Below are positions 1-18,530 of a stretch of DNA of 18,576 nt, in pieces; the stretch's first letter is position 1, and each line of letters starts with the position of its first letter. The notes under the pieces were generated by a model. The model saw only the letters and a program-made list of their open reading frames with translations. It was not told the DNA's origin and ran no database searches. The stretch comes from a bacterium (lineage in GTDB: Bacteria; Hinthialibacterota; Hinthialibacteria; Hinthialibacterales; Hinthialibacteraceae), in contig CAXXSM010000087.1 in NCBI GenBank assembly GCA_963663405.2, forward strand, positions 1 to 18,576, given 5' to 3'. A program made the position numbers and the translations under genes.

Positions 1-3000
1 TCCTTCGATCCATCATTCGCCCAGGGATCGAGTTGATTGGGATCTTTCAGCTGCTGACCCCGCAAGCGGGGGACGACGATGTAGAAGCAGGACGCGTCTC
101 GAAGGGATGAAATATCCCCCCACAATTTTTCAAACTGCGCGACGGGGTATACATCTTCCTGCCCCTGCCCCCACCGGCGTTTCACGTCTTTAATCGTCAC
201 GTATGTCGGCACACGCGCGGCCATTGAACGCACCGCTTCCGCCAGCGATTCGGGAGGGCCGTATAAAATCTTCCCTGCGCAGGTTGAATAATCCCAATAA
301 GCGATCGATATCAATCCACGTCGTCAGTGAGTTGTAATAGCGAAGTTTGAATTCATCAGATTCATTTGGTTGAGCCAAACCTTCGAGAATACGGACCTGC
401 CCATTCACCCTCGCCAATCCGCCTCCCCGGTCCTCCAGGCGGCGGGGGATCATTTCAAAACTGAGTGTATTTTTAGATTGAATATGCAGGCCCGAGAATT
501 CCCGGATCCAAGTTCGCGCCGAGTGTGTCGATATTGTGAAGCATCAAATATTTAAGAGAGGGTTGTCCTTGCAGAAGTTTCGCAAGAACTCCGTTCAAGA
601 TCATGTTGGGCGTTTCATAAAAATGGCCGGGAGGGTTTAAACCGCTGAATCGGCACGTTATCGACATATAAACTTCCTTCCCCCATCTCTTGCGCCCAAT
701 TTTTCAGCGCTTCCCGAACAGCGTCACGGACTTTCTGTTTTGTTTTCGTCCAAAGTCTCCTGCGGCATTTCTTCCCATAAGAACATCAAATCCCGGACCA
801 TGGGAATCAAACGATGCCCGATCGACCGGCCCGGTGAGAGATGCAATGGCCCTTTATAGGTATACCCGTCGTTCCGATCGAGATGTTTTTGAATCGGCTC
901 GTGGGTCAGGTAGCTGGTGGTGAAGATATGAGGAACAACAGTTCGAAACTGGTTCATCACGCGGCGGCTTTTGGCGAGGTGTATTTCCATGAAACTGCGA
1001 TGACAGCCCGCCATGTTGACAAACGGATTGGCCGCTTTAACAACACCGGCGCCGGAGGTCCAGCGGCTGCCCATTCCAGCGGCGAGAGAGATCACCGCTA
1101 CCTCTCCGGCTTCGATAGAATGCCGCCCGGCCTGAACCGCCGTCTCTGAAATCCCATTTTCGGCGATGTACACATCACCGTCTTCCACATCCGTAATTTC
1201 CGCATCAATCGGAAGCCGGTTCCGCGCCAGGCCGATCCGCCCATGACGCAGGTCCGCGCATAATTGCTCTTGTTGAACGGGATCGTATCCATTCTCTTTC
1301 ATTAGCCGTTCCGCTTCTTGATCCCAATCCAAGCGATCTTGCCCCGCGCGGCCTCCTGACAGAGGAAACAGATGATTCACCATTGTCCGAAGCGTATGAA
1401 TCAATTGGCCAGTCTCTCGACAATGGGTCGTGAAATGTTCTAAATCAAGGCTGCGGGTTGCAGTGATCTCTTTTGCGGGTGTCTTCACCATTGCGGGAAC
1501 ATGCAAAGCGTAGTACGGTACCGGCATCATAGCTTCATCACCGATATGGAGAGACGCGGTGGAGCCATATTCGTTAATCTGGAAATCGTAAACAACCGGA
1601 TCGATCGACGAAAGGAAGCGTAATCCTGTAATTCCTGCTTGGTTGTAAGCATGATTTGATGGATATCTTCCACAAAGGTATCCCGCCGTTCGGGAGCCAC
1701 AAACATCGCCATCCCACCACCCGACATCCCACCGAGCATGAGAAATCCCCAAGAAATCAGAACCATACGACTGTCGCGCGCGGTTCGATAATGGTCTCGG
1801 TAAAATGATTCGTGACCCAGGGGATAATTGTTTTTAACGGTCCGTTCCAGTTCTGCGTAGTCAGCGACGCGAGTTGTTTGACATCGCCTTCTTCAAGGGA
1901 TTGGCAAATCCGATCAAAGATACCATGCATCTCCTGCCGGGCGATCCATTCCTCCTTCGAACGCAGAAGATACTTCTCCGTGACCATTTCAAGAATCGGC
2001 CCGACATTCTGCGCCATCCCTCCGTGGATTAACACCAACGAGCGCGCCAGCTGATCCCGCAGTTCTGCAGGCGCGCGGTTTTGATCCCATACATCATGCT
2101 GCGGCAAGAGACGGCCACGGCTGATTCCATATTCCGGGTCGTCTTCCTGCGCTTCCACGCCGTATATTTTCTTGATCCCTGGCCAGATACCTCCAGAATC
2201 CTGCCATCCGCCGCCTGAACCGCCAAGCCACTCACCAAGTATCGCGCGTGAGGCGACGAGGACGCCGGGCGTCTTCATCCAAGGGACCGGTAAGACGAGC
2301 CGTCTGCCCCGTGGCGCGCATTAACAGCGCGATAATCGACGCCAGCAGGTTCGTTGATACCGCCAGCCTCGAACCTTTTGGAATGTTATTCACCTTTGCC
2401 ACGAGTTCGATCCCCATCCGTTGGCCCACAACTTGAGAGAGGATTTTCCTCAAAGATTGGCCCGTCCCTTCAAAGGAGGGAGGAATCAAACCGGACGCGA
2501 TCACACCCGCCTTGAGAAGCCCCAAGTAATCATTTCCAAAGTTGAATAAATCCTCCAAGTCATAGATATCTTTGGTGGCTTCTAAATCAACGCTGGTGAG
2601 CCGGAGGATGGGTTCTCCGATGACACGCGTATACGTTTCGATGGGTGGAGATGTAGCGTTATCCCGGTTGTGAACGCCTAAATCAACCGATATGTTCAAC
2701 ACCCCGCGCGCCTTCGGGATAATCCATTCCCAAGAAAAAAATATCCGACCACCCACTGTGGGAAAGATCCAACCGGACAGGTGTCTTCTCACAAAGAATC
2801 GGATAATAGGGGGAGCCGTCTATACGGCTGGTCAGTTCCCGCCGGATGCGAACGGAATGATCGATGGCGTTTCCAACCCGGAACATCCATTGATTGCCCC
2901 GCGACGCCCGCACCGACCGGCGCACTTGATCCGTCAGCGTTTCAAAAGCTAAGTCCCGGTAACATTGAGCGATCGCGCTGAAGAGCGTTCCACTCGGGCC

Positions 3001-3322
3001 GTTCCGCCGGACCGCGTCCTGCAGCCGCTCCAACGCTTCTTCAAACCGCCGGTCAAGCAGATCTTCATACGCCCGGTAAGGAATATACCCCGCCCGCGAA
3101 ACCTGCCCCGCTTCCATTAAGTAAAACCGGTAAATGTGAAAAAGAAACAAACAGGTGCGAACCCGTTCATACAGATTGCCGCTCGCACGGCGGAAAGTCT
3201 CGAGTTCCGCGCAGGAATCAAGGAGTACTTCATATGGCGCGCCATCCACCAATTCATCGAGAGAACAATTCCGGATAGTGGGATCAGCCGCTTGTGATGG
3301 TATGTAAAAATGGATTCGTCAT
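1..3322 (-). CDS. Bifunctional GHMP-family sugar kinase / UDP-sugar pyrophosphorylase (UDPGP-like) fusion, ~1100 aa; split by multiple frameshifts; 3' end runs off the window
   Basis: Consecutive minus-strand ORF pieces (2683-3252, 2232-2792, 1757-2278, 1527-1766, 724-1752, 473-667, 190-453 and a frame running to base 1) join into one protein starting [11 protein letters not shown] at ATG 3322. Kinase motifs: [52 protein letters not shown]. Pyrophosphorylase motifs: [50 protein letters not shown]. The breaks I traced are single-base indels, mostly in A or G runs. Confidence 0.85.
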
Positions 3323-3365
3323 TCCGTTATATATGAACGTTCAATTTAGTTCAGCCGTAAATTCT

Positions 3366-4335
3366 CTAATCGTTCCCCATTTTCCGCTGCTCTTGCCGAA
3401 GGAGAATCTCGACGAGATCGGCGAGCATCTGCTCCCGGTCGGCGCCAGCCAGCGCCAACGCGATCTGCGCCTCCACAAATCCGTAGGGAACGCCGATATC
3501 GTACCGCCGCCCACAAGTCTCCAACGCGAGGTATTTCTCCCGCCGGGAGAGTTCCTGCAACGCGGGAGTCAACTGGATCTCTCCCTTTTCCCTTCGGTCT
3601 TGCCGGATATGCTCGTCAAGAATCTCAAAGATCGCGTGGTGTCAACACATGCATCCCAAAGAAACAGAGATAATGACCCAACCGCAGCCCCGGAACCTGC
3701 AGTTTACATTCCGCCACGCTGAGCGTCGGTTTTTCGATCATCTCTTCGATCTGATAGACTTGAGGTTTGCCGGGAACGCGTTTTCCCCCGACGGTTCCAT
3801 ACAAGCGGATAAGGTGTTCCCGCGTCGCCTGGACGGCGGACGACGGCGCATTCCATCTCCTGCGCCAGATCCATGATCTGAGCCGCGCAACGGCGGCTTT
3901 CGTCAGAGATATAGAGATGATCGCCCCAACAATAATAGAATCGGCTCATCCCCCAGCGAACTCTTTCGCGCACCAGACAGCGTGCCCGTATCCTTCCGGT
4001 GAGGTTTGGGGAATAAAACAGAACCGTTTTTTCGAGTTCTTTGAGCCGCTGCGCCCTGTTCCCGCGCCCACTCCGTGTCTTTGTAGGCCGCAAGAAGGTT
4101 CTCCGACAGCCCACGGAACTGCGCGCGGTAGTGTTCTTCATCCCCGGGCGCCGAGATGACCGCGATCGACTCGATTCCGCTATCCAACGCTTCCTCGCCA
4201 ATGATCTGGATCACGGGTTTCGTCAATCCATCCCGGTCAACGAGAGGAAAGCATCGCTTTCTGGACCGTGCTCGAAGCCGGATACTGCCGAACCCCGCGC
4301 CCAGCCGCCGTAATCACCGCTTTTCGAATTTGCAT
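3366..4335 (-). CDS. galU: GalU-like sugar-phosphate nucleotidyltransferase (NTP_transferase family), frameshifted
   Basis: From ATG 4335: [29 protein letters not shown](fs)[26 protein letters not shown], then GDEP..L.GDHLY, and a C-terminal [19 protein letters not shown]. These are GalU/RmlA-type signature motifs spread over ORF pieces 3903-4226, 3704-4201 and 3366-3572. The sugar and nucleotide specificity are inferred. Confidence 0.75.
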
Positions 4336-4568
4336 GGAATCTTAAACACCTTACTAGACTACGCTGGAATACTGATCCTATGTAACCAAAAAGATAATCC
4401 AGCGGAACAATTCAATTGGATTACACTATATTATAGGAAGAAGTGGATGCGAAAAAGGTTTTTCCAAAAAAAGGGGGCAAATATTCACCTTAATTCAAAA
4501 AAATCATATAAATAGAATTCCCATTTGCTAATGGATATCACACAGATCGAACAAATACCAGGTAAGTA

Positions 4569-4611
4569 ATCCTGAACATCTTATCCATCTTGTCCATCCT
4601 AATTCAGACAA
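4569..4611. repeat. Degenerate 9-bp tandem repeat (ATCCTGAAC ATCTTATCC ATCTTGTCC ATCCTAATT) followed by CAGACAA
   Basis: Four 9-nt-periodic ATC(C/T)T units are directly visible in the intergenic region just past the stop codon of the 4625-5113 gene. Confidence 0.6.
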
Positions 4612-4624
4612 AGAAAAACCAACC

Positions 4625-5113
4625 TCATTCCATCTCCACCCCCGCATGAAACGAACGAGCCATTGGTTTCGCATAGGCCAGAATTCCGAGTCCGAATAAG
4701 AGTTGAGCGCCGGGTTTAATCATAAAACGAAAATCTTGAGGCCACACAAATTTGGGCAAACTGGCTCCACCTTGAAACACAAGAGCATGTTGAGCAAAGG
4801 AATTCATATTATCCACAACAGAAAGACCAATAAAATAGACTCCCAAGACCGAAAAGGCGATAATATGCAATTGCCGCGCCGAAATCCCCGTCACGGTCTC
4901 TTCCTGATCCATACCCGCGGTGATCTGATTCGCCAGCGGTTCAGCAAATATCCACAAGAGAACCGCGCCAAGAACAGCCCCGGTCATTGAAATTATCGAA
5001 TGCACAGACATATTCGGACTACCAAATAACGTTGGTAAATACGCAAAAATCGGATACAAAAAGTATAAAGCCATTATTCTACACACCAACACACCAATCT
5101 CTTTTTTGCTCAT
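4625..5113 (-). CDS. Hypothetical integral membrane protein (~4 TM helices)
   Basis: 162-aa ORF with four hydrophobic segments arranged as two similar halves. A GGAGG ribosome-binding site lies 8 nt upstream of the ATG. Confidence 0.8.
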   Translation of the reverse strand: MSKKEIGVLVCRIMALYFLYPIFAYLPTLFGSPNMSVHSIISMTGAVLGAVLLWIFAEPLANQITAGMDQEETVTGISARQLHIIAFSVLGVYFIGLSVVDNMNSFAQHALVFQGGASLPKFVWPQDFRFMIKPGAQLLFGLGILAYAKPMARSFHAGVEME

Positions 5114-5234
5114 TAGAAATACCTCCCGATCAAGGTTATTAGACCAATATATTACTATAGAACAGATAACAACAAATATAAAGATATGATTTAATTTTAT
5201 TCAATCACCACAAGAACGAAAGTTTCAATTTTTC

Positions 5235-5263
5235 TTGATTTTCAAACAAATCAACATTATACT
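5235..5263 (+). promoter_or_regulatory. Sigma-70-type promoter of the HD cassette, overlapped by an inverted repeat
   Basis: TTGATT (5235-5240), 17 nt, TATACT (5258-5263). The inverted repeat TTGATTT-N6-AAATCAA spans 5235-5254. Confidence 0.55.
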
Positions 5264-5321
5264 TTGTGTAATTTGAACACCCCACCAAAATTCACATCGC
5301 AACGATAAGGAGAAAAGAGGA

Positions 5322-6605
5322 ATGGCGAATTCAAATCGTTTGTATGAATTTCGGTGTCCTGTTTTCGGCTTTATTGAATTAAACGATTGGGAAAGGGACA
5401 TTATTTCAGAACCAGCATTTCAGCGACTTCGCCGGATTCGCCAGCTTGCCCTGACTGATTATGTCTATCCAGGAGCCATGCACACTCGTTTCGAACATTC
5501 TCTTGGCGTGATGCACATGGCGACGCTGTTATTTGATGGAATCACCCAGCGATCAAAGGAAATTCTTGAAAATGATTATGGATTTAATCGCGATGGATTA
5601 AAACGAAGCCGAGTGATTGTTCGTATCGCCGCTCTCTTGCATGATGTAGGGCATCCACCATTCTCTCATGCGAGTGAAGAATTGTTTCCTTTAAAAAAGA
5701 ACAAAGGATCAACGGTTCACTATAAACATGAGGATTATTCCGCAGCGATTGTCCGCTATAAATTTAAATCCATTATTGAGGACCACAAAATCAACAAAAA
5801 TTATGACATCAAAGCAGATGATATTGCTAATTTTCTTGAAGGAGATCAAAATACAGGAGAAATTTTATTTTGGCGCAATCTTATCTCTGGCCAATTGGAT
5901 GCGGATAGAATCGATTATTTGCTCCGTGATTCACACCACACAGGTGTAAGTTATGGAAAATTCGATTGGCAACGTCTTGTTAACACCGTGGAAATAATTC
6001 CTATTAAATATGATTCTTCGATGAATTTCATTGGAGTCAATGAAAGCGGTTTACATGCTGCGGAAGCGTTGATCTTGGCTCGATTTTTCATGTTCACCCA
6101 AGTTTATTTTCATAAGACACGTGTAGCATACGATTTTCATCTTCGTAAAGCGATGAAAAAAATACTCTCGAATAAAAAGTTACCCTCTCCTAAAGAAAAA
6201 AATCTTGATACATTCTTAGAATGGGACGATTGGAAAGTGCTTGGATTTCTCTCACAAGGAGAAGGAGGGGAACACGGACAACGAATTAGAGAAAGAAATC
6301 ACTATCGGGAAATCCGACATACTCCAGAGACACCTGTTCAACATGATTTAGAAATACTTGAAAAATGGCGTGATGCTTTAGGAAAATTATTAATGGCAGA
6401 AGAACTAGCAAGTAAATCTTGGTACAAATTAAAAGAAGAAGATATTCCTATAATCACAGAAACGAAAGTAAGATCGGTGATTCCATTGTCCAATCTTTCA
6501 ACCATAGTATCAAAGATTAGCGCAACAAAGAAAGTATCACTCTATGTAAAAAAAGAAGATGTTGATGAGGCGGAAAACAAACTACAGAGAATCGGGGAAA
6601 ATTGA
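5322..6605 (+). CDS. HD-superfamily metal-dependent phosphohydrolase (SAMHD1/YwfO/COG1078-like, putative dNTP triphosphohydrolase)
   Basis: 427 aa with RCPVFGFI, FQRLRRIRQL, VYPGAMHTRFEHSLGVMH, AALLHDVGHPPFSH, LDADRIDYLLRDSHHTG and ARFFMFTQVYFHK. AAGGAG/GAGG ribosome-binding site upstream. Confidence 0.93.
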   Translation: MANSNRLYEFRCPVFGFIELNDWERDIISEPAFQRLRRIRQLALTDYVYPGAMHTRFEHSLGVMHMATLLFDGITQRSKEILENDYGFNRDGLKRSRVIVRIAALLHDVGHPPFSHASEELFPLKKNKGSTVHYKHEDYSAAIVRYKFKSIIEDHKINKNYDIKADDIANFLEGDQNTGEILFWRNLISGQLDADRIDYLLRDSHHTGVSYGKFDWQRLVNTVEIIPIKYDSSMNFIGVNESGLHAAEALILARFFMFTQVYFHKTRVAYDFHLRKAMKKILSNKKLPSPKEKNLDTFLEWDDWKVLGFLSQGEGGEHGQRIRERNHYREIRHTPETPVQHDLEILEKWRDALGKLLMAEELASKSWYKLKEEDIPIITETKVRSVIPLSNLSTIVSKISATKKVSLYVKKEDVDEAENKLQRIGEN

Positions 6606-6606
6606 A

Positions 6607-7170
6607 ATGGATTATTTTGATCAAATGTGGAGTCGTTTGGCGACACTTGGGAAACTGGTCGGAAAAGCGCCGAATCAATATTTGGGCCATACAGCCATTA
6701 TGAAACTAACCTATTTTCTTCAAGTTCTAAAAAAAGTTCCTCTTGGCTATGATTTCAGATTTTATTATTATGGTCCCTATGATTCGGATGTATTGGGTGA
6801 TTTAAACTACGCCGAATGTTTAGGCGTTGTGAATAGTGAAGTAGAATATTATCCAAAAGGAGGATACGGATACAGAGTAAGCCGTGGGAAAGCAGCGGAT
6901 GAAATCGACGAAAAGGCAAAAGATTTCCTAAAAAAATATGAAGATGATATTAATTGGGTAATCCAAAAATTTGGGAATCGAAATGCGTCACAACTTGAAT
7001 TGGTTAGTTCAATCATTGGCATGTCTTTGGATAGGAGGAAAGACGGCAATCCTTTTTCTTTGGACTCAATAGTGAAAAAAGTAAAAAAAATTAAACCGCA
7101 TTTTGAAATACAACAAATCAAAGAAGAAGCGCAAAGTTTACTTGATGCCAAGATAATTCTTTCAAAATAG
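6607..7170 (+). CDS. YwgA-family / Panacea (DUF4065, SocA)-like winged-helix protein, putative antitoxin or regulator
   Basis: 187 aa from ATG 6607, 1 nt after the HD stop (TGA-A-ATG). Motifs GHTAIMKLTYFLQ, LGYDFRFYYYGPYDSDV and NASQLELVSSI are typical of the YwgA/DUF4065 group. Confidence 0.75.
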   Translation: MDYFDQMWSRLATLGKLVGKAPNQYLGHTAIMKLTYFLQVLKKVPLGYDFRFYYYGPYDSDVLGDLNYAECLGVVNSEVEYYPKGGYGYRVSRGKAADEIDEKAKDFLKKYEDDINWVIQKFGNRNASQLELVSSIIGMSLDRRKDGNPFSLDSIVKKVKKIKPHFEIQQIKEEAQSLLDAKIILSK

Positions 7171-9687: not shown

Positions 9688-10296
9688 GTGAGAACGATGG
9701 AAACCAAACAACCTGAATCGCATGGAATTCTCTTCGTCCGATTTCGAGATGAAGGCGATATGGCGGCTATGGAGGCGATCATGAATCATTACTATCGTCC
9801 CTTGTTCACATATCTTATGCGGATGTTGAAAAGCCGGGAAGATGCGGAAGATTCTCTTCAGGAAGTCTGGTTAAAAGTAATCCATCAGAGAAAAACCTAT
9901 AAAGATCAAGGCCAGTTCTCTTCCTGGTTATACCGGATCGCTCATAATTACTGTCTGGATCTGTACCGGAAGCGAAATCGACGCCCGTTTCTTGCGCAAG
10001 AAACAGAATGTGAAGACGGGACCGGGCTGCTCGACCTGCTTCCAAGCGCGGAACAAACCCCGTTTGAAATCGCTGTCGATAATGAAAACATGATCCGATT
10101 GGAAGAACTGGTGGACCAATTGCCGGAACCGATCCGCGAGGTGTATCTTTTACGAAGCGTACATGAAATTCCGTTCAAAGAAATTGCGGAAATTCAAGAG
10201 TGCCCGATAGGGACCGTGCTTTCCAGAATGCATCAAGCGGTGAAACGATTGCAACAGGGGATGACGGCCAGTCAACCCGCGCATGAATCCGCGTAA
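9688..10296 (+). CDS. ECF (sigma-70 group 4) RNA polymerase sigma factor
   Basis: Region 2 is DAEDSLQEVWLK...FSSWLYRIAHNYCLDLYRK. Region 4 is LPEPIREVYLL...FKEIAEIQECPIGTVLSRMHQA. The true start may be ATG 9697. Confidence 0.95.
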   Translation: MRTMETKQPESHGILFVRFRDEGDMAAMEAIMNHYYRPLFTYLMRMLKSREDAEDSLQEVWLKVIHQRKTYKDQGQFSSWLYRIAHNYCLDLYRKRNRRPFLAQETECEDGTGLLDLLPSAEQTPFEIAVDNENMIRLEELVDQLPEPIREVYLLRSVHEIPFKEIAEIQECPIGTVLSRMHQAVKRLQQGMTASQPAHESA

Positions 10297-10316
10297 TTGC
10301 GATTGGAGATGATCGA

Positions 10317-10835
10317 ATGAAACCCAAAATAGCCCCTCTATTTCAGTCTTCCGGGAAAGAGGGATGCCCCTCAAAAGAACAGATGGTCCTCTTCCTGGAT
10401 GAAACCAGCGAAGCGCCCGAAAAGAAGGCGTTCCTGAATCATACCGCTCTTTGTGAATCGTGCCGCCGGGAATGGCAAACGATCAATTATTTCACCGGCG
10501 CGGGCGCTTCACTGCCCATGTATGAACCGGATCCAGCCATTCGGGATCGTGTGCTTAAAGTCGCGTCCTCCGCTGGGAACTCAGAACCATTGCCCACCAA
10601 CAAAAAAACACGGTATTATCTACGTTCTCCCGGCTGGCGTTTGACGTGGGCGGCTCTCTTTCTAGCGATTAGCTGGGTCGGAATCTCGCAGTTCCATACG
10701 ACGGAAGTCACCTCGATTCCGATTGAGCAACTCGATAGCGAAATGCTAACTCTCGAACAAGATCTGGAAGAACTCCAGTTCGAACTCGGGATGGATGTTT
10801 CTGGATACTTTACGCTTACGGATGAAAGAGCATGA
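10317..10835 (+). CDS. Zinc-binding (zf-HC2/ZAS) transmembrane anti-sigma factor
   Basis: HxxxCxxC motif (HTALCESC) with an upstream Cys, one TM helix (WRLTWAALFLAISWVGI) and a short acidic C-terminal tail. Lies directly after the ECF sigma gene. Confidence 0.85.
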   Translation: MKPKIAPLFQSSGKEGCPSKEQMVLFLDETSEAPEKKAFLNHTALCESCRREWQTINYFTGAGASLPMYEPDPAIRDRVLKVASSAGNSEPLPTNKKTRYYLRSPGWRLTWAALFLAISWVGISQFHTTEVTSIPIEQLDSEMLTLEQDLEELQFELGMDVSGYFTLTDERA

Positions 10836-11584
10836 AGAATCGACGAAAGACGTTCACATTCTGTTTCTTGACAATCACAGTTCTCTTTTCCGCGTTTCTT
10901 TTTTCTACCAGCTTGGTTTTATCGGAAGAAAAGAAAGCGGATTCCAACGTGGAAAACGCTACACAGGAAGTAAAGAAATCGGGGGATGAACGTTCGGATG
11001 AAAGAATTGAATGGAGCGAACGGCGTTCATTTCGAGATAATGATCAAGAAGAAGGCCGTGGATTTGGCCCCCCTAATGGAGAACGCAGGGGCCGTAGATT
11101 CGGCCCTCCGGAGAGACCTGGTCCGGGTCCAGGATTTGGTCCACCAGGGGGAGAATTCGGATTCGACCGGGGACCTTTCCACCGGCCGCCGCGAAGTTTT
11201 CTCACTCCCGACCGGCTCGAAAAAATAAAAGAAGATTTTCCGGATCTGGCGGAAGCCATCGAACAAACACACAGTATTTTCGAAAAAATCAAACAAACTG
11301 TGCATGAATATCACGACGAAACGGACTCTGCGATCCGTGAAGAAAAAGAAACCGAATTGAAAGAGATGTTAGAGAAGCAATTTGATTATGAATTGAAAAG
11401 ACAGAGATTGGAAATTGAAATGATGGAAAAGCGCCTTAAACAGATAAAAGGCGCTCTCGATCAACGAGAGAAATATAAAGAGAAAATTCTTGAGTCAAGA
11501 CTCAAAGAAGCGCTTGATACAAAGCCTTCCACCCGCGAGGATCGCAACAACGAGTCAACATCCTTTCCAAAAAAAGAAGAATAA
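10832..11584 (+). CDS. Exported helical protein (Spy/CpxP-like accessory of the ECF operon) with a GPP-rich low-complexity linker
   Basis: N-terminal signal peptide, a GFGPP/PGPGP repeat tract and a highly charged coiled-coil C-terminal half. ATGA overlap with the anti-sigma stop. The Spy/CpxP assignment is inferred from context. Confidence 0.7.
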   Translation: MKNRRKTFTFCFLTITVLFSAFLFSTSLVLSEEKKADSNVENATQEVKKSGDERSDERIEWSERRSFRDNDQEEGRGFGPPNGERRGRRFGPPERPGPGPGFGPPGGEFGFDRGPFHRPPRSFLTPDRLEKIKEDFPDLAEAIEQTHSIFEKIKQTVHEYHDETDSAIREEKETELKEMLEKQFDYELKRQRLEIEMMEKRLKQIKGALDQREKYKEKILESRLKEALDTKPSTREDRNNESTSFPKKEE

Positions 11585-12045: not shown

Positions 12046-12558
12046 ATGAATTCTCGATCCTTAGTGGCATATATAAAAGACAACAAATTTATTTATAAGA
12101 ATAAATTGATCCGTTGGCCCCATTACACAGGAATGGGCTATTTTAAATTTTCCCTGGAAACTCTATTCGGCGAAACATTGTGGAGCAACGATGGAACGAC
12201 TGGAAGGAACGTGGAACCTTCTCGAGTGATTCCACTAGCGGTAAAAAAAGGCTTCTTCTCAATCCGGCTGGGCGACAAAAAATTTAAAAATATGATGTCA
12301 GAGATCCATTCGTCCATTCTAGAACATACTGATGTCTATCTGCGAGTCTGGTTTAGCGCGGATAAAGTCACATTTATCCGTTGGGCGCACCACGCGCATG
12401 ACCTGTTCAATACGAATAAGAATGAGAAAAAACAATCCGAAGTGATCACACTTGTTTTAGAAGACAACTACGGCCTGCCTTCTCAATCCACCAATCCAAT
12501 CAAACCAACAGGAACGGAAGCATACATTCGTCGATACGCGTACGGAAAAGTTGTATAG
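12046..12558 (+). CDS. Hypothetical protein resembling the N-terminal module of large secreted fibre/collagen-like proteins (FKF.L...WSNDGT...EP...LGD...YLRVWF); possibly a remnant
   Basis: 170-aa ORF with a good GGAGG ribosome-binding site. The motif string GYFKFSL-TLWSNDGTT-VEPS-LAVKKGFFSIRLGD-VYLRVWFS is recognised from recall only. No signal peptide. Confidence 0.6.
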   Translation: MNSRSLVAYIKDNKFIYKNKLIRWPHYTGMGYFKFSLETLFGETLWSNDGTTGRNVEPSRVIPLAVKKGFFSIRLGDKKFKNMMSEIHSSILEHTDVYLRVWFSADKVTFIRWAHHAHDLFNTNKNEKKQSEVITLVLEDNYGLPSQSTNPIKPTGTEAYIRRYAYGKVV

Positions 12559-12724: not shown

Positions 12725-12753
12725 TTGACAAATTTTATATATATTCTTATAAT
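12725..12753 (+). promoter_or_regulatory. Perfect-consensus sigma-70 promoter
   Basis: TTGACA (12725-12730), 17 nt, TATAAT (12748-12753), with A-tracts upstream. It lies ~117 nt before ATG 12871. Confidence 0.8.
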
Positions 12754-12870: not shown

Positions 12871-15800
12871 ATGAGAAAGAATCGTATCTTAAAAAGCCTT
12901 ATCTTCATCAGCGCGATTCTATTGATCGGAGCCTTGCCCAACATCTCTTATTCCGCCTTGTTTACCATTAGTGGCGGAACGATTTCATCAAACACAACGT
13001 GGGGACCAAATACGAACGACACCTACCATGTAACTGGAAACATCACAATTAACGATGGTATAACCCTACAAATCAACCCAGGAACCACAGTCAAATTTGT
13101 TCTCGGCGTACAAATGACTGTATATGGAACGTTAGACGCGAATGGGATTGAAAGCAACAAGGTTGTCTTCACGTCCGTGAATGACGACAGTTATGGAGAT
13201 ATCATTTCTGGCTCCTCTTCCACTCCCACGGCAGGGGATTGGGATGGGATTTTCTTGAATGGTGGGGGCAATTACGATGGCATTGGACAATTCGACTATT
13301 GTATCCTCCGCTACGGTGGAACCGCCACCACAGGCTCCGACCCCGACGCCAATGTGTATTTTTATTATTCCGATTCGGGGTATTTCAACTACAGCGTAAG
13401 TGAATATAGCAGCCAACATGGAGTGAAGATTAATAATTGCTCACCCTCACTGACAAATAGCGCATTCCAGAATAATGGAACGGCGGCGACCCACGATGGG
13501 ATCTATGCTTCAGGCACAAGCGCCGCGCCCACTATTACAGACAATGAATTTCACAATAATCTAGGCTATGGAGCCTACATGAACAATATCTCTTTAACCA
13601 GTTATTCGGGGAACACAGGCAGTGGAAATGGGATCAACGGTTTTGGTGTCATTGGCACAATCAAAGCCAATCGTACGTGGTCCAGTTCCAGCGCATTTCC
13701 CTTCGTGATTCCCGGCGCCGTAACCGTAAATGATAATCTTACTCTTACGATCGATGCAGGGACGATTCTTAAGGGGAATTCATCCGGTCAATTGACAGTT
13801 TACGGAACGTTGGACGTGAATGGAACTTCTGGTATTGGCAACAATGTAGTCTTCACTTCGTTGAAAGATGACAACTATGGTGGTAACACGGACGGCGACA
13901 ATGGAGACGCCTCTCCCGGCGATTGGCGTGGGATTTTCTTGAATGGTGGAGGCAATTACGATGGCATTGGACAATTCGACTATTGCATCCTCCGCTACGG
14001 TGGAATCGCCACCACAGGCTCCGACCCCGACGCCAATGTGTATTTTTATTATTCCGATTCGGGGTATTTCAACTACAGCGTAAGTGAATATAGCAGCCAA
14101 CATGGAGTGAAGATTAATAATTGCTCACCCTCACTGACAAATAGCATATTCCAGAATAATGACAACCATGGGATCTATGCGTCAAACACCAGTTCCGCGC
14201 CTATCATTACAAATAATCAATTTCACAATAATCTAGGCTATGGAGCCTACATGAATAATATCTCTTTAACCAGTTATTCGGGGAACACAGGCAGTGGAAA
14301 TGGGATCAACGGTTTTGGTGTCATTGGCACAATCAAAGCCAATCGTACCTGGTCCAGTTCCAGCGCATTTCCCTTCGTGATTCCCGGCGCTGTAACCGTA
14401 AATGATAATCTAACTCTTACGATCGATGCAGGGACGATTCTTAAGGGGAATTCATCCGGTCAATTGACAGTTTACGGAACGTTGGACGTGAATGGAACTT
14501 CTGGTATTGGCAACAATGTAGTCTTCACTTCGTTGAAAGATGACAACTATGGTGGTAACACGGACGGCGACAATGGAGACGCCTCTCCCGGCGATTGGCG
14601 CGGGATTTTCTTGAATGGTGGAGGCAATGACGATGGCATCGGACGATTCGACTATTGCATCCTCCGCTACGGTGGAACCGCCACCACGGGCGACGACCCC
14701 GACGCCAATTTGTATTTTTATTATTCCGATTCAGGGTATTTCAACTACAGCGTAAGTGAATATAGCAGCCAACATGGAGTGAAGATTCACTATTGCTCAC
14801 CCTCACTGACGAATAGCATATTCCAGAATAATAATAACCATGGGATCTATGCGTCAAACACCAGCTCCGCGCCTACCATTACAAACAATGAATTTCACAA
14901 TAATCTAGGCTATGGAGCCTACATGAACAATATCTCTTTGACCAGTTATTCGGGGAACACGGGCAGTGGAAATGGGATCAACGGTTTTGGTGTCATTGGC
15001 ACAATCAAAGCCAATCGTACGTGGTCCAGTTCCAGCACATTTCCTTTCGTGATTCCCGGCGTTGTAACCGTAAATGATAATCTTACTCTTACGATCGATG
15101 CAGGGACGATTCTTAAGGGGAATTCGTCCGGTCAATTGACAGTTTACGGAACGTTGGACGTGAATGGCGCTTCTGGTATTGGCAACAATGTAGTCTTCAC
15201 TTCATTGAAAGATGACAACTATGGTGGTAACACGGACGGCGACAATGGAGACGCCTCTCCCGGCGATTGGCGCGGGATTTTCTTGAATGGTGGAGGTAAT
15301 GACGATGGCATCGGACGATTTGATTATAGCATCCTCCGTTACGGTGGAAATGGAACCACGGGCGCCGACGCCGACGCTAATGTTTATTTTTATTATTCCG
15401 ATTCGGGGTATTTCAACTACAGCGTAAGTGAATACAGTTACCAAGATGGAATCCGTGTCTATAATTCATCCCCCTCGTTTGTGAATGCAGTTATTCGTCG
15501 AAACGCGACTCCGTCTAGCACAGGAGGAGGATTTTATTTCTCTGGTTCCAGTTCCACATTAATGAATACTACAGTCGCAAATAATTCGTGCGCATCAAGT
15601 GGAAATGGTGGAGGACTATATTGCACTTCAAGTTCCAATATAACCATTACAAACTCCATCTTTTGGGACAACAGCCCGTATCAGATTTATCAAGCAGGCT
15701 CCGGCGTCAGTATTTATTATTCGGACATCCAAGGAGGACCGGGGGGAATCGCCGGAACCGGCTCTCTCTTCTATTCCCCAACCAACATCAACTTAGATCC

Positions 15801-16612
15801 ACTATTCGCCGATCCCAGCAATAATAACTACCGCTTGCAATTTGGCAGTCCATGCTTGAACCGTGGAACGCCATCCGGCGCGCCTGTCGTCGATATCGAC
15901 GGCAATCCCCGCCCAGATCCAGCCGGGTCCTCACCCGACATGGGCGCATATGAAAGCGCGCTGGGGTGGCAATCGTACTTAGTCAATGGTGACGGCGCCG
16001 GAGGAGGCAGCGGCCGATACTGGTTACCCGGCGGTGTTGACGGCTATTTCGACGCACGGTTAATCGCCGCGCAACAGATTGTCGGGGGGCGTCCCAACCT
16101 TTCCATCTTGGTGCGCCGATCGCGACACAACGATCAAACTCGCCATTTGGTATCCTCACGTGAGTCTCTACGACGCCATCACGGCCGAGTCTTCCGGTTG
16201 CTCCCTAATTGGAAATCCAGAAAACTTAGATTTAGTCATGTTCCTATTAGTGTTGTACCGGGATGGTTATTTTGTGGACATTGATATTGGTGGAACGTTG
16301 TATACCGCCACAAATAACGAAATCCAAGCGGCGATCTGGAAACTTCTATTCAATGGTAATGTGCCTTCGATAGGCGGTGATGGAATCGCCAGCGGAGGCT
16401 TCATATCCTGGAATCCAATTCTCGCCGATTGGTTGTATGATTACGCGCTGACACATGGAACGCTTCCTGACTATACCACATATCCAAATTTACCGATTGT
16501 AGTCATCATCGACTGCGGCGACCAAGTCAATCTACTCGAAATCCCCTATTGGCTCTATCAAGAATTGGATAATCTAGGCATCGTTACAAGTTGTCCAGTT
16601 TCAACACCATAA
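12871..16612 (+). CDS. Large secreted right-handed beta-helix repeat protein with a choice-of-anchor-Q-like module and a C-terminal thioester-domain-like region (~1246 aa after removing one G at 16084-16089)
   Basis: Signal peptide (MRKNRILKSLIFISAILLIGALPNISYSA), N/G/S/T-rich beta-helix repeats and NINLDPLFADP..NYRLQFGSPCLNRG..DIDGNPRP...DMGAYE. Deleting one G in a G6 run joins ORF 12871-16284 to ORF 16079-16612 (..QQIVGGVPTFPSWCAD..). A terminator follows 16612. Confidence 0.85.
13237..15438 (+). repeat. Intragenic tandem repeat, ~3.3 copies of a 672-684 bp (224-228 aa) unit
   Basis: GGGATTTTCTTGAATGGTGG recurs at 13246, 13930, 14602 and 15274 (spacings 684, 672, 672). The units are near-identical at the DNA level. 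Confidence 0.95.
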
Positions 16613-16636: not shown

Positions 16637-16664
16637 AGGGCGCTCGATTCAGAGCGCCCTTTTT
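16637..16664 (+). terminator. Rho-independent terminator
   Basis: AGGGCGCTC-GATTCA-GAGCGCCCT followed by TTTT, 25 nt after stop 16612. Confidence 0.8.
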
Positions 16665-16726: not shown

Positions 16727-18493
16727 ATGATGAGCCGGTTTGGTTTATCGAAAGTAATTCCACTTTGGTTAATCATTCCCATAATCTGTTTTCCAAGCCC
16801 TGGTTTCACCGCTGAAGACAATTTTCAAACAATAGCAAATCGAGCGCATGAAGTCAGCGAGTCGTTGGAGAATGATATACCGCTGTGTCAATCCGCCGTT
16901 CTCGAGAGGATGAAGAACGGCGCCGAATGGCTCACGGCCTTGGATCGGTGTACATCAAAGCGGAAATTAGAAGAAGCGCAGCAAGGAAATAAAGCAGGGC
17001 AATTCGTGGGAAAACTCATAGGTGTTGAGAAAACCTATGAATCACTGCAATTCGCTGCTTTCGCCTTGCACTGGGAATCAATTTTACAAAGAAATGCGCC
17101 TTTATCATTGCGGACAGAGCGCTCTCTTGAACTGCAGCGGGTGATTGCCAACGATCAAACCAATCCCGAAGAACAGCGCCGTCAATTAAATTCCCTTCAA
17201 CAACTCGCGGAAGAAGCTCTTCTTGAAATAGAGGCCCTCGACCGGATTGAACGCTTCCGCCGCAAAAACTGTACGATTGTCGTCACAGATAAATCCGGCT
17301 CGCCAGTGGCGAATGTCAGCGTTCAGCTGCGTCAGACACGCCATGCGTTCCTGTTCGGATGCAATATCTTCACGTGGAGCGGGGGGGATGGTGAAACCGA
17401 ACGCCTCTATCGAGATCAATTCGCCGATTTATTAAATTTCGCCACCCTCGGTTTCTACTGGGCGGGATACGAACGCCGCCCCGGAACGACGATGGAAAAA
17501 CACCGGCGCGATATAGCGGAATGGTGCAAAAACAATGGGATTCTCTGCAAAGGTCATCCACTCGTATGGAACTACGCCGATCCCCACTGGGCGCCGGATG
17601 ATCCAGATGAACTCTACCGGCTGCAAATGGAGCGGATCACGCGGGAAATGACTGCGTTTGCTGGATTGATCGATATCTGGGATGTCGTAAATGAGGTTAC
17701 CGCGTTTCGACCGGAAATCCTTTATAGAGAAAGCGCCGAAAATGACCGCGATGTGGGCAAAACATGGGCAGATGGAAATGCCCCGCAAAGCGTTCCAAAT
17801 TGCCCGGAAAGCGAATCCCAACGCGACTCTCTTGATCAACGATTACTACTATAAAACACAGGAAGAAGCCAACCGGGACAATTCGATCGCCGGAGATAAA
17901 CACGAGATTTATGAAGACGTGATCGAAGCGCTCGTGAATAAAAACGGAAAGAGATTATACGATGCGATCGGGCTTCAATCCCACATGCACGGAGGCCCCT
18001 GGAAAACAGAGAAAATCCTATCGCTTGTCAAACGGTTCGCGAAGTACGGCGTTCCCCTTCATTTCACGGAAACAACTATCGTCTCCGGACCTCGTGATGG
18101 AAGAAACTGGGGAGAAACCACGCCGGAAGGGGAGAAGACACAAGCCGATGAAGTGGAGCGATTCTACCGGACCGTATTCTCCTGCCCTGAAGTCGAAGCG
18201 CTCACCTGGTGGGATTTCTCGGACCGTTACGCATGGCAACAGGCTCCATCCGGTCTGCTGCGCAAGGACATGACCCCCAAACCAGCGTATTCACGCCTTC
18301 ATAAATTAATCAAAGAAGAATGGTGGACAAATGAAACGGAAAAGACGGACGCGCAGGGAACGGCGTGTCTACGTGGATTCATGGAGATTATCAAATTACC
18401 GTCACGACAGAAGATGGAAAAACCATCGAAACAGAGATTCGTCTCACTAAAGATGGAAAAGACACTGCGCGCGTTGAGATTGTTCTTGAATAA
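16727..18493 (+). CDS. Secreted glycoside hydrolase family 10 (endo-1,4-beta-xylanase-like), two frameshifts
   Basis: Signal peptide, then QTRHAFLFGCN, LNFATLGFYW..YE, KGHPLVW, WDVVNE (acid/base), LLINDY, IGLQSHMH, LHFTE (nucleophile), TWWDF and GLLRKDMTPKPAY. There is an extra T at ~17705-17707. A base is missing at ~18380; restoring it gives RGF.GDYQITVT...VEIVLE with the stop at 18493. Confidence 0.88.
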
Positions 18494-18530
18494 ACCTAGC
18501 TATATATAAAAAAATCGGCTCAGATTGAAT

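Follow-up and report, generated by a model that had tools for sequence, protein, structure and literature searches.

According to the papers cited here and below, thioester domains (TEDs) are domains of Gram-positive adhesins and are nearly always N-terminal (PMC4450167). Folding forms a thioester between a Cys and a Gln residue, and the amine of a target then yields an amide on the Gln (PMC4450167; 10.1101/743393). TIE proteins combine a TED with an isopeptide or ester stalk and an LPXTG motif (PMC4450167; PMC6194298). The physiological target is known for just two TEDs (PMC13685950), and for almost half of the fibrillar-adhesin-like proteins, no anchor is known (PMC8286594). The "C-terminal TED" in PMC6194298 is the second TED of Cpa, which lies inside a CnaB domain, and the archaeal TEDs in PMC8416519 are of the unrelated alpha-2-macroglobulin type. 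No TED acting as the terminal module of diverse secreted proteins was found in the accessible portion of the literature; the supplements of PMC9210967, PMC8286594, and PMC12617251 could list such proteins.

We analyzed a window of 18,576 nucleotides (the whole stretch of DNA under study) encoding a TED-like domain that resembles class I TEDs (CpTIE, 5A0G; Cpa, 4C0Z/2XI9; SfbI, 5A0L; PnTIE, 5A0N; FNE, 5DCQ; PF08341) in predicted fold, the strand bearing the Cys, the QxxIW helix, the Gln on the last strand, and a short linker that lacks the class II beta-sandwich. On the other hand, it shares only 6-13% identity with them, carries the variants WCAD and DQVNLL, scores under the Pfam threshold, and differs in an extra C-terminal helix, a probable disulfide, and its extreme C-terminal place. 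The window protein is, like TIE proteins, secreted and elongated with a single TED, but the order is reversed, a beta-helix takes the place of the CnaB/ester stalk, LPXTG is absent, and TEDs of the window type are common to unrelated passengers, enzymes included. The window protein is not a TIE protein. As some TEDs outside the TIE architecture are already picked up by Pfam (for instance, in the homologue P0024), a wider occurrence is not new by itself; what is new here is an architectural variant of TED and a candidate covalent anchor module.

Gene layout and the break in the reading frame

The long ORF (12871-16284) spans the signal peptide, beta-helix, and choice-of-anchor Q module, and the whole gene, if ending at 16612, is flanked by a promoter-like site and a terminator-like hairpin. 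The features are as follows.

12725..12753 (+), sigma-70-type promoter-like site, TTGACA-17-TATAAT, called from a 12/12 consensus match only
12871..12957 (+), Sec-type signal peptide with a basic N-region and a hydrophobic core, without a lipobox; cleavage site placed by eye
12958..15822 (+), passenger, right-handed beta-helix (PF13229, E 1.2e-18)
15823..15957 (+), choice-of-anchor Q module (NF041518, residues 985-1029, E 1e-9, above the cut-off)
15976..16083 (+), predicted TED-fold domain, N-terminal part, in the frame of the long ORF
16084..16089 (+), run of six G (G6), at or near the +1 frameshift
16085..16612 (+), predicted TED-fold domain, main part, class-I-like, ending in a C-terminal helix and then the stop
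16112..16114 (+), predicted thioester Cys (WCAD), TGC, kept in 22/23 relatives, in register with CpTIE Cys138 and SfbI Cys109
16199..16201 and 16592..16594 (+), Cys pair, the latter the terminal Cys; probable, clade-specific disulfide
16325..16339 (+), QxxIW of the central helix (TQxx-hydrophobic-W motif), Q in 22/23 and W in 23/23 relatives, helix 76-87 of the model
16523..16525 (+), predicted thioester Gln (DQVNLL), CAA, kept in 23/23 relatives, in register with CpTIE Gln267 and SfbI Gln261
16637..16660 (+), intrinsic terminator-like hairpin, 25 nt past the stop at 16612

The beta-helix is made of about 3.5 tandem units of ~225 aa (starts near 13111, 13789, 14461, and 15133), which share 76-92% DNA identity with one another. 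The frame with all three TED motifs is open at 16064-16612 and lies +1 relative to the long ORF. In tblastn, all 11 homologues matched the +1 frame at 16076/16100-16597, and nine of the 11 also matched the frame of the long ORF at ~15940/16015-16071/16098. As the homologues match both frames, the break falls within one ~210-aa domain near the G6 run. The gene is deposited only in broken forms, namely P0032 (1137 aa) and P0013, a 124-aa fragment without the Cys.

We regard a single gene with an assembly error as likely, since the adjoining GH10 gene is likewise divided between frames. Were the frameshift real, the gene would be a pseudogene or would carry a slipped-strand switch at G6, and the strain would make the beta-helix without the TED or toggle the TED; this possibility is independent of the function of the TED domain. 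The position of the break at a G run is consistent with a real frameshift, as is the failure to find an intact copy of the gene, but the GH10 gene is split as well (Pfam positions 62-141 and 149-308), the region 724-4226 is in several overlapping pieces, so that the contig seems indel-prone, and the sequence downstream of the break is unbroken and shares 51-57% identity with homologues. We consider a real frameshift unlikely. Returning to the assembly error, the likely product of the gene is a single protein of ~1,246 aa, exported by Sec and comprising the signal peptide, the beta-helix, the choice-of-anchor Q module, and a C-terminal class-I-like TED, with a one-base error in the assembly splitting the gene.

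Neither LPxTG, a PEP/PEF motif, a basic tail, nor a strongly hydrophobic C-terminal stretch was found on the window protein, and the C-terminal piece had no match in NCBIfam, hence no recognized T9SS, PEP-CTERM, or dockerin sorting domain. The Rfam search found nothing, and no partner or target gene was evident near the TED gene. Altogether, these results agree with an earlier note on this DNA, which had claimed a C-terminal domain hidden by a frameshift and missed by annotation, a beta-helix followed by a choice-of-anchor Q-like module, and the absence of sorting tails.

The predicted fold and its putative reactive residues

AlphaFold models of the truncated window piece (pLDDT 86) and of an intact homologue, P0015 (pLDDT 79), were compared with 48,161 chains by VIA-align. 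For either model, all eight chains with Z of at least 5 were TEDs: the Z values, which are middling, ranged from 7.7 to 5.5 for the window piece (next 3.5; top match with an rmsd of 4.0 over 145 residues) and from 9.7 to 7.1 for P0015 (next 4.0; rmsd 3.7 over 149). In Foldseek, the P0015 model matched the N-terminal TED of Cpa with an E of 2.1e-4, while the truncated window-piece model matched nothing at E<=0.001 (best 0.1), although ranks 1-11 were TEDs. The TED-like fold that the earlier note had suggested is borne out by both models in VIA-align. Judging from these models, the domain almost certainly has the TED fold.

The Cys/Gln registers were taken from the ends of the aligned ranges only, assuming ungapped ends. 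Residues 1-154 of the window-piece model were aligned to 130-275 of CpTIE (5A0G), placing Cys9 on Cys138 and Gln146 on Gln267, and residues 1-155 to 101-270 of SfbI (5A0L), placing Cys9 on Cys109 and Gln146 on Gln261; both are the published thioester pairs. With PnTIE (5A0N), the range end 154<->255 sets Gln146 on Gln247, and the Cys is one residue off, again assuming ungapped ends. In the model, WCAD lies on the strand 7-9 and IQAAIW on the helix 76-87, and the Gln starts the last strand of a hairpin. Class I TEDs have a linker of ~10 residues where class II TEDs have a beta-sandwich insertion (PMC6194298). In the window-piece model, 12 residues separate the helix 110-123 from the strand 136-142, and so short a linker ahead of the last hairpin marks the domain as class-I-like.

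The motif coordinates in the earlier note were correct: SWCAD, EIQAAIWKL (Gln codon CAA at 16325-16327), and GDQVNLL lie in one frame with 137 residues from Cys to Gln. Among 23 aligned relatives of ~30-60% identity, the Cys and the helix Gln were each kept in 22, and the Trp and the distal Gln in all 23. The Cys-Gln spacing in relatives is 125-152. The choice of the Cys and Gln made in the note is sustained by both this conservation and the CpTIE/SfbI registers. A pattern of the three motifs matched 11 of 200,000 shuffles, but it was devised after inspection of the sequence and loosened for W and one additional residue; the conservation among homologues is the stronger evidence.

The motifs depart from those published. 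The W before the Cys is outside [YFL]C, with YC being present in P0020 and P0024; I replaces T of TQxx-hydrophobic-W in IQAAIW; and DQVNL does not fit the weak hydrophobic-Q-polar motif. Not one residue of the TQxx-hydrophobic-W motif is fully conserved (PMC4450167). A profile match to the TED family was not obtained for the window domain itself: neither Pfam nor NCBIfam gave a family, the gathering cut-off of PF08341 was not reached, and searching the PDB sequences with the domain alone, with two profiles, or with P0024 retrieved no TED chain. Among 26 homologue representatives, P0024 (two TEDs, E 4.9e-15) and P0023 exceeded the Pfam TED cut-off, and P0027 scored under it. P0023 and P0024 thus provide a sequence bridge from the window domain to TEDs.

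By analogy with characterized TEDs, the thioester is likely to form. A TED fold lacking a working thioester, which would serve as a non-covalent binding module or as an export tag for an unrecognized secretion route, appears quite improbable to us. It would accommodate the deviant motifs, the missing Pfam/NCBIfam match of the window domain, the additional C-terminal helix common to C-terminal members, and a Cys-less copy, but the Cys in 22/23 and the Gln in 23/23 relatives at ~30-60% identity, exactly at the thioester registers, speak against it. The copy in question, the LRR protein P0016, keeps the terminal domain with the thioester Cys changed to Arg, and represents either a natural inactive copy or a sequencing error. 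Besides the predicted reactive residues, a second Cys pair was found, with both Cys present in 15/15 close and 0/8 distant relatives; from this pattern, the pair is a probable, clade-specific disulfide.

Terminal position, passengers, and a possible anchoring role

The TED was at the C-terminus in 21 of 27 relatives with the whole domain, excluding the fragments P0013 (self), P0018, P0026, P0029, and P0031 and the repeat artefact P0019. The 15 close members end 0-3 residues past the TED and the six distant ones 0-31 residues past; the window TED ends 4 residues ahead of the stop, in keeping with the C-terminal position given in the earlier note. In the remaining six (P0023, P0024, P0027, L001, L002, and L003), the TED was not C-terminal. 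The extra C-terminal helix is common to the C-terminal members. The close TEDs formed a 100/99 clade of 15 rows in a tree that omits P0017 and contains one P0027 row as a duplicate artefact. As the deep branches were not supported, we claim no order of events.

The passengers of the close group (the window and 14 others) fell into eight unrelated clusters, namely beta-helix, PKD, LRR, subtilase, GEVED, propeller, a 2,904-aa multidomain protein, and an orphan, although these 15 may derive from a small number of genomes, the contigs of P0004 and P0005, for instance, being of equal length. No LPxTG or PEP/PEF tail was found among the C-terminal TED members, and a lipobox-like motif occurred in only 1/22 N-termini, probably by chance.

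None of the 119 homologues of the window's passenger carried a TED. By a crude pattern, 27 of their tails were T9SS-like and 16 dockerin-like, and 76 had no recognized tail; a tail is thus not obligatory. Among the top 40 of the 119, NCBIfam matched TIGR04183 in five and dockerin_GC in five (E<=0.001), of which four and two, respectively, were above the cut-off. In P0062 and P0066, a DxGAYE-type motif is followed by a dockerin, and the same motif precedes the TED in the window protein. The sorting and anchoring modules (T9SS type A tail TIGR04183, GC-type dockerin NF041540, and PEP/PEF-CTERM) share with the window TED the terminal slot behind choice-of-anchor modules and the swapping between unrelated passengers. 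In contrast to them, the TED is larger (~210 aa), is not homologous to any of them, and would bring its own reactive bond with no need for sortase or cohesin.

Because it caps unrelated passengers and takes the position where relatives of this passenger have T9SS or dockerin tails, the TED looks more like an anchor than a tip, and the subtilase among the passengers would fit a tether better than a distal adhesin tip. By analogy with these modules, we lean towards an anchoring role. From known TED chemistry, the Cys would attack the Gln on folding, with ammonia leaving and a buried thioester resulting, and the primary amine of a target would then attack the thioester to give a Gln-amide link. 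Considering the architecture, this link would hold the passenger in place, and the TED would act as a portable C-terminal tether, working without an enzyme, that fastens proteins to the envelope of their own cell or to a common extracellular matrix. A C-terminal TED would be loaded at its N-terminal side, with the force passing through most of the domain; speculatively, the disulfide may shorten the route of the force between passenger and Gln after the thioester opens.

The earlier note had envisaged a covalent adhesin of reversed architecture. Such a protein would be fixed to its cell through the N-terminal part or the passenger, leaving the TED at the far C-terminal end free to attach to foreign surfaces or partner cells. 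Every characterized TED binds external ligands (PMC4450167; PMC13685950), the repeated beta-helix could act as a stalk, and the LRR, PKD, and Big passengers are stalk-like. Such an adhesin requires an N-terminal anchor, but 21/22 N-termini lack a lipobox, the hydrophobic N-termini read as cleavable signals, and no N-terminal anchor is common to the unrelated passengers, which include enzymes. The reversed adhesin is therefore less well supported than the note had it, and we find it rather doubtful.

Going back to the anchor, we tentatively put forward a broader possibility: in an uncultured, probably Gram-negative lineage, the TED might serve as a general sortase-free, self-ligating C-terminal anchor on many secreted enzymes and binding proteins, tying them covalently, perhaps pH-reversibly, to amines of the lineage's own envelope or matrix. 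The nine passenger homologues named to lineage are all from groups that we take to be Gram-negative/diderm, which is weak evidence on the host. If true, proteins would be displayed by a new route, and the domain would be a natural covalent tag that is genetically encoded and disulfide-braced for loading from the N-terminal side. A TED as a swappable terminal tether would be a new means of keeping secreted proteins on cells or the biofilm matrix, and TED chemistry would be extended to environmental bacteria and, in the N-terminal form, to archaea. The domain is small, and its chemistry can be tested in days.

As a separate observation, several passenger homologues (P0034, P0037, P0040, P0045, P0047, P0056, and others) share another unannotated C-terminal tail ending in W-x-x-P...Y-x-[VI]-x-A, possibly a further terminal module.

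Distribution and other genes in the window

A scan of GTDB representatives with the alignment of the close relatives gave 125 pattern matches, none of which was confirmed as a close relative. A looser motif scan, with gap limits that leave out some known members, yielded three loci, two in metagenome-assembled genomes (MAGs) of the methanogenic archaea Methanomicrobiaceae (L001 and L003) and one in a Syntrophobacteraceae MAG (L002). No match was found by tblastn against plasmids and phages, and a homologue search from the distant member P0021 recovered only P0021 itself.

The N-terminal TEDs of L001, L003, L002, and P0024 belong to the subfamily of the window domain and share with it the pattern of WC[AV]D or YCxD, VN, QxAxW, and a terminal Gln, and matched the domain HMM with E of 4e-23 to 1e-11, whereas they have the conventional N-terminal order. 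L001 and L003 differ further from the window domain in the lack of the C-terminal helix and in a PEF-CTERM-like tail (E 0.1, below the cut-off). The two Methanomicrobiaceae proteins (L001:599-1303, +; L003:4451-5155, -) consist only of a signal peptide, a TED-like domain, and that tail; they escape Pfam and are candidates for thioester surface proteins of archaea. The TED-like domain of the L002 protein (3946-6207, -) is N-terminal; this protein also shows a weak match to DUF7507 and a long tail rich in Cys, Gly, and Gln, and a PEP-CTERM gene lies upstream of its gene.

Other genes were recognized in the window. The GH10 glycoside hydrolase gene (16727-18509, +) is split between two frames near 17700-17850. 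The overlapping ORF pieces at 724-4226 (-) had only a weak UDPGP match (E 0.03), and are probably fragments, created by frameshifts, of one or two genes for a sugar kinase or nucleotidyltransferase. A 170-aa ORF at 12046-12558 (+), directly upstream of the promoter of the TED gene, had no match in Pfam, NCBIfam, or PADLOC. The region 9688-11584 (+) encodes an ECF sigma factor, a zf-HC2 anti-sigma factor, and a coiled-coil exported protein. Finally, a gene pair of low GC content (~36%) at 5322-7170 (+) comprises an HD-domain protein (PF01966 and PF19276; PADLOC dGTPase, E 1e-10) overlapping a SocA/Panacea-like protein (PADLOC DarG, E 3e-8), and resembles a defence or toxin-antitoxin module that has been acquired.
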